From sequence record MT150133.1: a stretch of DNA of 64,000 nt; one strand, 5' to 3'. Every line of letters starts with the position of its first letter. Within the stretch, counting starts at the first letter, position 1. A model generated the notes under the pieces. The model was not told the origin of the DNA, made no database searches, and was given only the letters and a program-made list of their open reading frames with translations. This stretch comes from Enterobacteria phage vB_EcoM_IME540. Below, one piece after another: positions 42,971 to 48,544 of the stretch. Position numbers and translations under genes: made by a program.

Positions 42971-43199
42971 CGTCTCGTTCCCATGATTGTTTAAAAATAT
43001 CTTGCATAATAATTTGAAGTCTATTTTCTGTTGATGGACTTTCACTATCAGACACTTGAAGCATATAGTCACCAATAGGACAGAACATATCCAAGTCGCT
43101 TTCTAAATCTTCTTTGATTTTCTCTTCTGACGTTCCGGTATCATAGGAATACAGATAAGAATCACATGACTCGGATTTAATATAAATCGCAATACTCAT
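42963..43199 (-). CDS. hypothetical acidic protein (78 aa)
   Basis: coding-strand ORF. Confidence 0.45.
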   Translation of the reverse strand: MSIAIYIKSESCDSYLYSYDTGTSEEKIKEDLESDLDMFCPIGDYMLQVSDSESPSTENRLQIIMQDIFKQSWERDDE

Positions 43200-43789
43200 T
43201 TACGGCATTCCTCAATAAACTCATTTAAATTCCGTTTGATTTTACCTTCGTCGTAAAGACGTTGTTGACGACGTAAACGCCATGGCATTTCAATAGCCAA
43301 GCACCAAATACTTAAAGCAGCGCCAGCTGTGAAAAGGTTCATTAATCCAGCACCAATAATAGTTCGTTCTAGCGCATCATTCCAGTTAGCATCGATTAAA
43401 AATGAACTCAACACTAACATTGGAAGTAAAGTAATAAAATATGCTACAACATATCGTCTGAACGTAAGCCATTCAGTATCGATGAGCTTAGCCTTTCCAT
43501 CTTGGAGACAAATATACTTATCGTCAGTGCGGGTGATTTTCTTTACTGGTTGCCAGCCGTTTACGATATAGCCCATTTTATATTCCTCAATTAAAAGCTG
43601 TTTCATTTCGGCAGTACAACCTGACCAATCTATTGTACTGGCTGAAATTCCTTCATCACCGTCATCGATATTTCGCCAGGACTTTTTAATAATCATATGT
43701 TCACCACTTGGGATAATAATTCCAGCATTTTCCGACCGACGGATGAAGTTTGTATCAATACCCATACAACCGGGTTCATAAAGGGCCAT
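43196..43789 (-). CDS. hypothetical membrane-associated protein (197 aa)
   Basis: hydrophobic stretches; C-terminal NLNEFIEECRK motif shared with two other ORFs. Confidence 0.5.
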   Translation of the reverse strand: MALYEPGCMGIDTNFIRRSENAGIIIPSGEHMIIKKSWRNIDDGDEGISASTIDWSGCTAEMKQLLIEEYKMGYIVNGWQPVKKITRTDDKYICLQDGKAKLIDTEWLTFRRYVVAYFITLLPMLVLSSFLIDANWNDALERTIIGAGLMNLFTAGAALSIWCLAIEMPWRLRRQQRLYDEGKIKRNLNEFIEECRK

Positions 43790-44478
43790 TACCAGCCCTC
43801 CATAGGGAATTCCAGATATACTTGAGCATTAACGCGGATTTCATTAGTAATCTTTTTAACTCGGTCGGTATTACGAGACACACGACCAAACCAGCGCCAA
43901 CCGTTACTTACTGCACGAGAACCTGTATGCCATGTCTGCCAATCAAACTGGAGCAACGTGCGGTCGGGGGCATCCCACTTGGTTAATTCATTAGACTCAA
44001 TTTTTTCCAGAACTTCTTTATGCCACTGGCGATAGATAAGTTCGCCTTCAGGAATCTGACTGAATTGTGCAGTTCCGGTTGCAAAATGAGTAGGACACAC
44101 ATCAGCGTTAACAAGACCAAGAATATGTTCAGAATGGTATCGAGGATTATCATAATCAGGTTGCCCTGCGGTAATAAAGTGTTGACCCACCGGAATATCC
44201 GGGCGTGGTACATCATCATGGTGGAAGCCTGGAATTGCAGGGTACCAGCCAGGCATTAACATGTGTACACGGGAATCAAATACAATATCAGGGCCACATT
44301 GCCAATCTTCAGGCAGGTTTTCAATAAAGCTACGAGTAATAGGACCGCCATGTTTATGAGCAAAATAAGCATCGCAATTAAAGAACATAGGCTCATTTTT
44401 AATCATATCATTACTGATATCTTGAGCAAAACCACCTACTGCACGAGCTTTAGAATTAAAAATTTTTGGACCGTTCAT
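43789..44478 (-). CDS. hypothetical protein (229 aa)
   Basis: coding-strand ORF with His/Asp-rich segment PGFHHDDVP. Confidence 0.5.
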   Translation of the reverse strand: MNGPKIFNSKARAVGGFAQDISNDMIKNEPMFFNCDAYFAHKHGGPITRSFIENLPEDWQCGPDIVFDSRVHMLMPGWYPAIPGFHHDDVPRPDIPVGQHFITAGQPDYDNPRYHSEHILGLVNADVCPTHFATGTAQFSQIPEGELIYRQWHKEVLEKIESNELTKWDAPDRTLLQFDWQTWHTGSRAVSNGWRWFGRVSRNTDRVKKITNEIRVNAQVYLEFPMEGW

Positions 44479-44492
44479 AATATTTTCCTCAC

Positions 44493-44705
44493 TTACTTTT
44501 TGTTGAAAAAGTACATTTTACCTTTAGGGGATAAGGATACACGAAGTGCGTTACCAATACCAACTGAACATTTAACCAGGTCAGCAGATTTCAATTCACC
44601 AAATGCTTGACGAAGGTCACCGTCACGAGTGTTAACCATCAGGCATTTAGCACCAGCTGCACGAACTTCGTTTAACATGTTGATTGCTTGGTTAGAAAGT
44701 TTCAT
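44493..44705 (-). CDS. hypothetical protein (~70 aa)
   Basis: start trimmed to MKLSNQ with ATGGAGAATAAAATG leader; promoter element lies further upstream. Confidence 0.45.
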   Translation of the reverse strand: MKLSNQAINMLNEVRAAGAKCLMVNTRDGDLRQAFGELKSADLVKCSVGIGNALRVSLSPKGKMYFFNKK

Positions 44706-44742
44706 TTTATTCTCCATTTCACTCTGTTGTTTTGATAGGTCT

Positions 44743-44771
44743 ATAGTATCACACCTATAGACCTTGTACAC
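44743..44771 (-). promoter_or_regulatory. early promoter element variant (GTGTAC-N17-TACTAT) with perfect inverted repeat
   Basis: ggtctatagtatcacacctatagacc: 9-bp inverted-repeat arms GGTCTATAG / CTATAGACC. Confidence 0.45.
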
Positions 44772-44783
44772 TGTTTTGTGCAA

Positions 44784-46851: not shown

Positions 46852-46861
46852 TTTTATCACC

Positions 46862-47074
46862 TTAGCAAGACATAGAGGATGTAAACCAGAAACCTTCACC
46901 ATCTGGGATACCGTAATCATCACGGGCCCATTCATAATCATCATATTCCGGATTCTTTGGAGAAATGTATTGTCCACGACCAGAAACATGGAACTCTTCA
47001 CCCGTTTCGTCAGCCACGGCCTGGCCTTTACGTACTAATTCGCGGATTTGTTTTTCAATTTCATCAATAGTCAT
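46862..47074 (-). CDS. small paralog family member B (C-terminal WFTSSMSC)
   Basis: 70 aa; N-terminal helix MTIDEIEKQIRELV; C-terminus GFWFTSSMSC. Confidence 0.55.
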   Translation of the reverse strand: MTIDEIEKQIRELVRKGQAVADETGEEFHVSGRGQYISPKNPEYDDYEWARDDYGIPDGEGFWFTSSMSC

Positions 47075-47083
47075 TTTATTTCC

Positions 47084-47365
47084 TTAACATTCAGAAGAAG
47101 AGGACACCCAACCGCCATTTTCTAGGCTGGTGGTGTAATCATGCTGGTTTACAATAGCATACTGGGCTTCACCGTATTCTTCCCAGTGGGCAAGGTCGGC
47201 TTTCAAGGCGCCAGGAGAATAATAGTCACCGCCCATACCGCGAGCAGGGTATATATTAAAATGAGTCTCATATTTGTTAGCAATTTCCTCGGCACGACGA
47301 ATAGCTTTATGGATATCATTTACTGCGTCAGCCAGCTCTTTATTTTTACGGTAATCATTCATCAT
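47084..47365 (-). CDS. small paralog family member C (C-terminal WVSSSSEC)
   Basis: 93 aa; C-terminus GGWVSSSSEC. Confidence 0.55.
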   Translation of the reverse strand: MMNDYRKNKELADAVNDIHKAIRRAEEIANKYETHFNIYPARGMGGDYYSPGALKADLAHWEEYGEAQYAIVNQHDYTTSLENGGWVSSSSEC

Positions 47366-47374
47366 AGCGTTTCC

Positions 47375-47665
47375 TTAGCACATTGCCGAAGAGGAGACCC
47401 AAGCACCAACTGTAACGACACCGTTTTCAACTTCACCGCCATTGTTTTCAATTTCATCTTTAAACCATTGGGAGCATTCATAACCGACAGGATAATATGT
47501 ACGGCCTGAACCATAACCACCGGTACTGAATTCAATACCATATTCATCTGCGATTTCTTCACATTTGGATTCGATGGTGCCTACTTTACCCAGCAGGTCA
47601 TAGATAGCCTTTTCTGCGGACAGCGCGCTGTTGTATTCAGGGATTTCAATTTCAATTTTATTCAT
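47375..47665 (-). CDS. small paralog family member D (C-terminal WVSSSAMC)
   Basis: 96 aa; C-terminus GAWVSSSAMC. Confidence 0.55.
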   Translation of the reverse strand: MNKIEIEIPEYNSALSAEKAIYDLLGKVGTIESKCEEIADEYGIEFSTGGYGSGRTYYPVGYECSQWFKDEIENNGGEVENGVVTVGAWVSSSAMC

Positions 47666-48015
47666 GATTTACATTCCTTAATAAAGGTTTCAAGGTCATT
47701 ACGTTTAGTTTGTTTTACATACTCATTATAATTAACCATAGCTAAAGCATATCTCTTTTTACGCGGCTTGTTTATTTTATTAGTTTGGGCAATATCAAAG
47801 ACCCATGGGATAAAAAATCCTATTAAAGCCGGAACCCAAATCCATGCAAGGCTCATATCTTCAAACGGATGGCGAGGCATACCATTAATAATCCCACCGA
47901 CAAGAAATCCAATTATCCCTGCAGTCATACTAGTAGCAATGCCGAGGAATAAGGAAATAGCTATATCATAATCTGCTAATGCGTAACCAGGGTCGGTTTT
48001 ACTAGGCTTATGCAT
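47662..48015 (-). CDS. membrane protein (~117 aa)
   Basis: start trimmed to MHKPSK; two TM helices; C-terminal DLETFIKECKS motif. Confidence 0.5.
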   Translation of the reverse strand: MHKPSKTDPGYALADYDIAISLFLGIATSMTAGIIGFLVGGIINGMPRHPFEDMSLAWIWVPALIGFFIPWVFDIAQTNKINKPRKKRYALAMVNYNEYVKQTKRNDLETFIKECKS

Positions 48016-48544
48016 TTTGAACCTCTTTAGCGTATTCGCGACATTCAGTAATAAAACGATTAAGTTTACGTTGTTGTTTACGAATCTCTGATGTATACTC
48101 ATTGGCTAAAATAATAAGCTCATCTTTATCGTAATTTTTAATATCCGAATAACTCGGGCGGCGGTCGACCATACCAAAGTGGTCACCATTTTCTAACATC
48201 AAATAGCATACTAAATGGTAATCATCGTCGGCATCAACAAGCTGTTTATAATCGCTTGGTTCATTTAAAGAGTATACTGAATAGCGTAGCCCAGCGAATT
48301 CCACTCGTTGAATAGCCAGATTTACGTCAATAATTTCTAAAGCATCTGCAAAAGAAAGGTCCTCAGCTAAAGCAAAGATAAAGGGTAATTTGGTAGTATG
48401 CCCACGGCTAGATGTTCTGCTTAAGAAATCGTTTGAATAACCTAGGTCTTGGCGAATTCTATAAAGAACTGCATTAGTTTCATGTGAAAGACCACTATGT
48501 TTAAACCAATCAATATTTGATATCAGGTCGTCGTATAAACTCAT
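48008..48544 (-). CDS. hypothetical protein (178 aa)
   Basis: coding-strand ORF; C-terminal KLNRFITECREY motif. Confidence 0.5.
   Translation of the reverse strand: MSLYDDLISNIDWFKHSGLSHETNAVLYRIRQDLGYSNDFLSRTSSRGHTTKLPFIFALAEDLSFADALEIIDVNLAIQRVEFAGLRYSVYSLNEPSDYKQLVDADDDYHLVCYLMLENGDHFGMVDRRPSYSDIKNYDKDELIILANEYTSEIRKQQRKLNRFITECREYAKEVQNA

Follow-up and report, generated by a model that had tools for sequence, protein, structure and literature searches.

A short C-terminal motif shared by proteins encoded downstream of e.6 in phage vB_EcoM_IME540 and related phages

Why should three proteins of one phage, two of them predicted membrane proteins and the third soluble, end in nearly the same few residues? 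The question is raised by a gene cluster of Enterobacteria phage vB_EcoM_IME540. The DNA analysed (sequence record MT150133.1; hereafter the window) is a single stretch of 64,000 nucleotides, which is 95-96% identical to the Dhakavirus phages MX01, QL01 and Bp7, T4-like members of the Straboviridae. In an initial annotation made from the sequence alone, three open reading frames (ORFs), at 43196-43789, 47662-48015 and 48008-48544, were noticed to share a C-terminal motif F-I-(E/K/T)-E-C-(R/K), and a common interaction or targeting tail was suggested. All three ORFs, here called P1, P2 and P3, were found at these coordinates on the minus strand with endings as described, ...KRNLNEFIEECRK for P1, ...KRNDLETFIKECKS for P2 and ...QRKLNRFITECREYAKEVQNA* for P3. 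The orthologous stretch of Bp7 is annotated nudE - ORF - e.2 - ... - e.6, with all genes on the same strand. Phage T4 is a model phage, yet its ORFs e.2, e.3, e.4, e.5 and e.6 have no assigned function.

The motif in the window and the proteins that carry it

The shared motif is real. A six-frame translation of the 64 kb contains L-x-x-F-I-x-E-C-[RK] three times and no more, and each occurrence lies 1-9 residues before the stop of P1, P2 or P3: L-N-E-F-I-E-E-C-R-K in P1 (43199..43228), L-E-T-F-I-K-E-C-K-S in P2 (47665..47694) and L-N-R-F-I-T-E-C-R in P3 (48038..48064), all on the minus strand, the last being followed by nine more residues. From residue composition, only 0.007 occurrences of FIxEC[RK] are expected in the window proteome and 0.0006 within C-terminal tails. 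In a post hoc shuffle control, which accepted any five-of-six pattern in the last 20 residues of 117 gene-like ORFs, the three occurrences observed were matched in 7 of 500 shuffles. The shared tail is thus not a product of chance. The basic stretch that had been reported before each motif is also present, as RLRRQQR..KIKR in P1, KPRKKR..KQTKR in P2 and RKQQRK in P3.

P1 (43196..43789, minus strand; 197 aa) is a homologue of T4 e.2, predicted to consist of a cytoplasmic N-terminal domain, two transmembrane (TM) helices, a basic linker and the tail. It matches phrog_2203 over residues 32-197 (E=2.6e-69), PF26896 is precomputed for all 29 of its homologues, and its Bp7 orthologue is annotated e.2 and lies two genes upstream of nudE. 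The body of P1, stripped of the tail, clusters with e.2 of the T4-type phage RB14. Its full-length profile match, its architecture and its site just upstream of nudE are those of the T4 e.2 family.

P2 (47662..48015, minus strand; 117 aa) is a homologue of T4 e.3 and consists of two predicted TM helices, a basic linker and the tail. It matches phrog_2330 (E=1.4e-43), and without the tail it still groups with RB14 e.3 (BLASTP E<=1e-3). Similarity outside the tail and the two-TM architecture of about 120 aa place it in the T4 e.3 family.

P3 (48008..48544, minus strand; 178 aa; phrog_8788) is soluble, is the first gene after e.6 and is a divergent homologue of T4 e.5. BLASTP alone missed this link. 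It was found by aligning the P3 alignment with that of the e.5 type, which gave an hhalign probability of 93% and E=3.2e-7 over 138 columns, including the body motif YS..LN. P3 thus has the similarity in the soluble body, the position directly after e.6 and the extra residues past the motif that characterise T4 e.5. A search of the PDB with the P3 profile gave no match.

The description of the three as otherwise different proteins holds in part. P3 shares only the tail with the other two, as hhalign of the e.5 family against those of e.2 and e.3 aligned just 12 tail columns (E=1e-4 and 1e-3). However, e.2, e.3 and e.5 belong to one gene cluster, and the e.2 and e.3 families of the window also align over the second TM helix (TM2), the linker and the tail (45 columns, E=8e-5). 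In the window e.3 and e.2 lie about 3.9 kb apart with other genes between them, and e.4 is absent from this phage.

The initial annotation had placed TM helices in two of the three proteins, and a hydropathy scan agreed: two were predicted in P1 (aa 114-132 and 148-166; 43292..43450, minus strand), two in P2 (aa 22-40 and 55-73) and none in P3. Numbered from the phenylalanine of the motif as position 0, the hydrophobic residues of the tail stand at -3, 0, +1 and +4. This is i, i+3, i+4, i+7 spacing, which would place them on one face of a helix. The tails have a hydrophobic moment of 0.47-0.68 and a net charge between -1 and +2, acidic residues being common at -2, -1 and +3. As a strongly basic linker follows TM2, the tail should be cytoplasmic according to the positive-inside rule.

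Conservation and spread of the motif

Alignment across homologues, by which the initial annotation had wished its proposal to be judged, found the motif kept in every one of the three families. FIxECRK was unchanged in 16 e.2 orthologues, the most distant of them 39% identical, LETFIKECKS in 14 P2 orthologues, the most distant 50% identical, and RFIxECREYAK in 15 P3 orthologues. The mean majority identity of motif columns exceeds that of the other columns in P1 (0.94 versus 0.73), P2 (1.00 versus 0.74) and P3 (0.94 versus 0.88). In each family no other part is as well conserved as the tail.

In RB14, four proteins carry the tail, e.2 (..LNNFITECRKLK), e.3 (..VKEFVSDCRKIK), e.4 (..IMKFVKESRCKSQN) and e.5 (..LEKFVKECREYVKAINVSSK). 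Nine further genera (Mosigvirus, Jiaodavirus, Kanagawavirus, Winklervirus, Tulanevirus, Moonvirus, Tegunavirus, Karamvirus and Pseudotevenvirus) have one to six tail ORFs each around e.6. There are six in Morganella phage MP1, and a single one, of the e.5 type and adjoining e.6, in Aeromonas-type and Pseudotevenvirus loci. The glutamate before the cysteine, part of the form first described and present in all three tails of the window, proved to be clade-specific, and the general motif is h-x-x-[F/Y]-[I/V]-x-x-C-[R/K], where h is hydrophobic.

A hidden Markov model (HMM) of the tail separated true tails of the seed set (at least 12.4 bits) from the best other ORF (7.3 bits); a single tail scores about 20 bits. 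Applied to 40 more viral contigs, which were picked solely for carrying e.6, it found 129 additional tails at >=9.5 bits, all on the e.6 strand. The one locus among them with no hit does have a tail, ..VELFVDYCRRTASKK, which scores below the threshold. In total 166 hits were obtained, representing 117 distinct tails, and all 163 hits in loci that could be oriented by e.6 lay on the e.6 strand. Among the 117 tails, +5 was always arginine or lysine, position 0 was phenylalanine in 114, +1 was isoleucine or valine in 114, -3 was hydrophobic in 110, and +4 was cysteine in 104, with I, M or V in the others. TM helices were predicted in 67 of the 117 carriers. The motif is followed by 0-7 residues in TM proteins and by 2-25 in soluble ones. 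When 41 tail proteins were stripped of their tails, the bodies fell into 23 BLAST clusters; the tail therefore persists where similarity of the body has been lost.

The tail is confined to this cluster. A scan of the whole T4 genome returned only e.2, e.5 and e.3 and nothing comparable elsewhere, and a scan of the 64-kb window returned only P1, P2 and P3. A tblastn search with a 25-aa tail retrieved e.2 orthologues only (533 records) and missed the other tail families, and a related-locus search from e.2 gave close relatives only.

The conservation is that of a protein feature. Across genera, the codons at conserved positions vary between TTT (23) and TTC (12) for phenylalanine and between TGT (17) and TGC (15) for cysteine, and the conserved arginine uses all of AGA, AGG, CGA, CGT, CGC and CGG. 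Because the amino acids are kept while synonymous codons vary freely, we conclude that selection acts on the protein.

Two irregular forms were seen. In the T4 assembly OZ035787.1 the tail-bearing e.2 frame (140229-140465) has just 78 codons from stop to stop, versus 162 aa in RB14, and PHROGs contains a family, phrog_35580, of 36 aa and no more than the tail. One reading is that some T4 stocks have a split e.2; the other is that both forms are artefacts of annotation or sequencing.

The neighbouring gene e.6 and a possible role of the tail

The tail genes all share the strand of e.6 and lie downstream of it. The gene next after e.6 carries a tail in ten loci (RB14 and the nine other genera) and in 39 of 39 viral loci with downstream sequence. 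In the window, e.6 (48593..49186, minus strand; 197 aa) is the first gene of the unit and 74% identical to the T4-type e.6. A site resembling an early promoter, TTTACA-17-TATAAT, is located just upstream of its start (49230..49258, minus strand) and matches the consensus at 11 of 12 positions, a consensus match only. As this site lies inside a 222-aa version of the ORF (48593-49261), the true start is probably the ATG at 49186, giving 197 aa as in the orthologues. No minus-strand terminator-like site was found from e.6 as far as nudE.

Profile comparisons identify e.6 as a homologue of PspA/Vipp1 (IM30), of the ESCRT-III superfamily. A phmmer search against 1.84 billion representatives yielded 35 representatives of the e.6 family, all of about 200 aa. 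A profile of 11 e.6 sequences gave weak yet colinear matches to Vipp1, and one of 26 sequences matched Vipp1 and PspA structures in the PDB (E=1.1e-4 to 7e-3), the best being the Vipp1 chains 8qfv_0 and 9eom_A (E=1.1e-4, residues 1-140 colinear with 1-141). With hhalign, e.6 aligned with Vipp1 residues 1-142 at a probability of 90.7% (E=1.3e-6), and with an E. coli PspA sequence over 27 residues only. The colinear match to Vipp1 takes in both the N-terminal amphipathic helix and the coiled-coil hairpin. Five of the 26 family members match PF04012 (PspA_IM30) on their own (best E=8.9e-10), and one GenBank record labels an Ackermannviridae orthologue of e.6 as 'PspA/IM30 family protein'.

The layout recurs in the Ackermannviridae. 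Downstream of the e.6 homologue, Agtrevirus, Taipeivirus and Kuttervirus have first a soluble ORF and then one to three small TM ORFs. The soluble protein, of about 185-196 aa, has a sub-terminal ..AIETIVARARGQ.., ..PIESIIRRA[R/H]GK.. or ..VESIVERARAR.., and the TM ORFs, of 55-61 aa, end in ..SIDHIVNKARGRRK, ..NIDIIVSQARSRRQ, ..WDIYAIVENARGRRR, ..DIDSIIKQARSRTRQ or ..VLQIVDKARKRHGK. These endings share a variant motif, I-[I/V]-x-x-A-[R/H], of the design h-x-x-h-[I/V]-x-x-small-R, in which F is replaced by I and C by A; it was found nowhere else on that strand in these loci. The replacements suggest that what matters in the cysteine of the T4-type tail may be its small, apolar side chain on the face of the helix, with the arginine as the invariant polar contact. 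The variant is plausibly homologous to the T4-type tail. Related-locus searches from remote e.6 relatives gave nothing useful. Separately, near position 4362 of Klebsiella phage KZag1 a small TM tail gene of the related phage cp16 appears degraded, leaving only a 16-codon frame that ends in ..NVDNIVSPARYRTRQ.

What, then, might the tail do? We infer that it is a cytoplasmic helix through which all these proteins dock on one partner, the best candidate being e.6, and give this explanation roughly even credence. The three tails would be copies of the general motif found in the early proteins e.5, e.4, e.3 and e.2, and the motif would fold as a short amphipathic helix close to the C-terminus or at its very end. 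In the membrane members this helix would follow the last TM helix and the basic linker and project into the cytoplasm, and in the soluble e.5-type member it would lie 2-25 residues before the end. A soluble protein and a number of small inner-membrane proteins would thereby gather, on the cytoplasmic side of the membrane, at a single partner, most plausibly e.6, which is encoded immediately upstream in the same transcription unit. The suggestion of a common interaction or targeting tail is borne out in kind by the conservation of the motif, its presence on at least 23 kinds of BLAST-unrelated bodies, the selection on its amino acids and its predicted amphipathic, cytoplasmic placement, all of which would fit a functional element of protein-protein interaction common to these proteins.

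Several observations weigh against this explanation. The link between e.6 and the tails is one of gene order, which is weak evidence where a whole region is co-linear, and co-occurrence was assessed one way, from T4-like genomes carrying e.6. The e.6 of the window has itself no match to PF04012 at E<=1, below the Pfam threshold, so its membership rests on the family profile and intermediate relatives. P1, P2 and P3 have no match in Pfam or NCBIfam at E<=1 and none in PADLOC, the families PspB, PspC and LiaI included. The near-invariant cysteine could mean metal or redox chemistry instead of packing, although some subfamilies have I, M, V or A in its place. Among close relatives hardly any change is seen in the tail DNA, synonymous sites included, and a nucleotide constraint or recombination thus contributes locally. 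Structure prediction with AlphaFold2 was of low confidence at the tail. In the P1 model, in keeping with a helical tail, TM2, linker and tail form one helix (residues 138-196), along which the predicted local distance difference test (pLDDT) falls from 79 to about 53; the pLDDT of the model is 60 and its N-terminal domain is uncertain. The P3 model (pLDDT 39, shallow alignment) was unusable. Low confidence toward the P1 tail would be expected for a motif lacking its partner.

An unlikely alternative is that the tails interact among themselves instead of with e.6. Those of e.2, e.3, e.4 and e.5 would then bundle as a hetero-oligomer that holds the soluble e.5 on an assembly of small membrane proteins and possibly shares a metal through cysteine. 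Consistent with this, several tail proteins occur together in most genomes, the amphipathic helix has a heptad-like hydrophobic face, and the one cysteine per chain is kept in 104 of the 117 tails. However, since the Aeromonas-type and Pseudotevenvirus loci have a single tail protein, of the e.5 type, a hetero-bundle is not the universal function, although the tails might form homo-oligomers. Whole subfamilies have I, M, V or A where the cysteine would stand, which speaks against a metal site as a requirement, and a motif of only about 10 residues is short for a stable coiled coil.

We also doubt, rather strongly, that the tail docks on a host inner-membrane protein, such as a protease, a translocase or a division or envelope-stress component, so that effectors are sent to one host hub. 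The early-promoter-like site suggests early expression, the bodies vary strongly while the tail is constant, and the e.2-e.8 block is dispensable in the laboratory, as is usual for host-interaction accessory genes; the block can be deleted in T4 (PMC9825161), and the tail/e.6 module is therefore accessory under laboratory conditions. On the other hand, no host-like motif or family was found in the Pfam, NCBIfam and PADLOC scans, and the motif is nearly constant across hosts from Escherichia to Aeromonas and Morganella, where the ever-present neighbour is the phage-encoded e.6.

It is very improbable that the tail serves as a generic signal, whether for membrane binding (a MinD/FtsA-type helix) or for degradation (a C-terminal ssrA/ClpX-type tag), even though it is C-terminal and amphipathic with basic flanks. 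MinD/FtsA helices are likewise terminal and amphipathic. A targeting helix of that type is cationic and loose in sequence on a soluble carrier, whereas the phage tail is near-neutral, 67 of the 117 carriers are already integral membrane proteins, and the sequence-specific conservation of F, I/V, C and R is unlike that of lipid-binding helices. A degron of the ssrA/ClpX type has conserved last residues, and the 0-25 variable residues that follow the motif are incompatible with a terminal degron.

The least probable explanation, to which we attach hardly any weight, is that the motif is a nucleotide-level by-product, of a Shine-Dalgarno site with an overlapping start, of RNA structure or of a recombination linker. 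In its favour, the tail codons GAG GAA of P1 and AAG GAA of P2 are also the Shine-Dalgarno site of the next ORF, 7-8 nt before an overlapping ATGA start, and many tails elsewhere use an arginine codon (AGG, AGA, CGA GG) within the Shine-Dalgarno site. Also, the last ~90 nt of P2 (47662-47750, minus strand) are 93-100% identical in nucleotide sequence to phages in which the TM-coding part is 30-67% identical, and identity falls again in the gene after P2. This island points to a local constraint from recombination or from the downstream translation-initiation region; it may be a mosaic boundary or a translation-start constraint. Against a nucleotide cause, the tail of P3, like all e.5-type tails, ends 5-25 codons short of the next start and has no overlap with a Shine-Dalgarno site. 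Which motif positions coincide with that site differs from phage to phage (the Arg-Lys codons in RB14 e.2), and synonymous codons are free at F, I, C and R across genera, as described above. Translational coupling through an embedded Shine-Dalgarno site is thus largely refuted as the main cause, covering only part of the P1 and P2 tails. When the three tail regions were folded as RNA, they did no better than shuffled sequences (z -0.13 to +0.49), and no RNA structure was detected that could be the cause. A gp21 protease site was rejected by inspection, as L-x-E fits P1 but not P2 or P3.

Other genes of the cluster and comparison with known systems

Other genes lie between the tail genes of the window, all on the minus strand. 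A 229-aa protein (43789-44478; phrog_1843), ending in ..NEIRVNAQVYLEFPMEGW, and a 340-aa protein with DUF7277 and DUF7275 (44784-45806) both have no assigned function, and both are found again in this cluster in other phages, among them Mosigvirus, Kanagawavirus and Moonvirus. Four small paralogous ORFs in tandem (47375-47665, 47084-47365, 46862-47074 and 46627-47001), three of which match phrog_899, have ..W[V/I]SSSxxC or ..SSC as their last residues (GAWVSSSAMC, GGWVSSSSEC, FWFTSSMSC and IWYPSSC). This serine-rich, cysteine-ending ORF family is also found within the e.6-nudE cluster of many other genera and is a second, unexplained C-terminal motif family. Scans of the neighbours of the tail genes with Pfam, NCBIfam and PADLOC gave nothing useful.

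The T4 ORFs e.2-e.5 are listed in databases as separate families with no stated function (PHROGs 2203, 2330 and 8788, and PF26896 for relatives of e.2). They have the same position between e.6 and nudE as the genes described here and, in RB14, the same tail, and are here joined by it. A literature search found no description of the shared tail or of a Psp-like module centred on e.6, though searches by gene name were swamped by unrelated 'e.2' strings. As far as can be told, the tail motif itself is new. Five T4 ORFs and more than 100 relatives in two phage families are thereby tied into one unit of a PspA/Vipp1-like protein and motif-marked partners, which suggests that large lytic phages come with a membrane-stress machinery of their own. 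It follows also that a motif of six residues can join families that PHROGs and Pfam clustering separate.

Short helices are known as docking modules in related systems. MIM motifs sit on ESCRT-III subunits and bind MIT domains. The phage tail resembles them, by analogy only, in being an amphipathic C-terminal helix of about 10 residues that may act as a portable docking module in an ESCRT-III/PspA-related system. It differs in that the motif is carried by the putative partners and that no MIT-like protein was seen.

A closer likeness is to PspA with PspB/PspC and to LiaH with LiaI. In Enterobacteria, PspB and PspC bind PspA, and in Bacillus LiaI anchors LiaH; the cytoplasmic parts of these membrane proteins are thought to recruit the PspA-family protein. 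In the phages, too, the PspA-family gene e.6 stands beside genes for small TM proteins with a conserved cytoplasmic tail, and the trait of an adaptor that could be recognised, a small inner-membrane protein encoded beside a PspA homologue, was found in the Ackermannviridae as well. We tentatively suggest, as a possibility that we would not rate highly, that the Straboviridae and the Vi1-like Ackermannviridae carry their own Psp/ESCRT-III-like module, in which e.6 would be a PspA-like polymer recruited by diversifying adaptors through the F-I-x-x-C-R helix, keeping the membrane energised after shutoff of the host stress response. Of the adaptors, one would be soluble, of the e.5 type, and the others, at most six, would be small TM proteins. 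Unlike PspB, PspC and LiaI, the tail proteins are encoded by phages and have no sequence similarity to them; since they match none of these families, they are not members of them and the likeness is an analogy only. Also unlike the Psp and Lia systems, the phage set adds to the small membrane proteins a soluble tail protein of the e.5 type and up to six paralogous partners.

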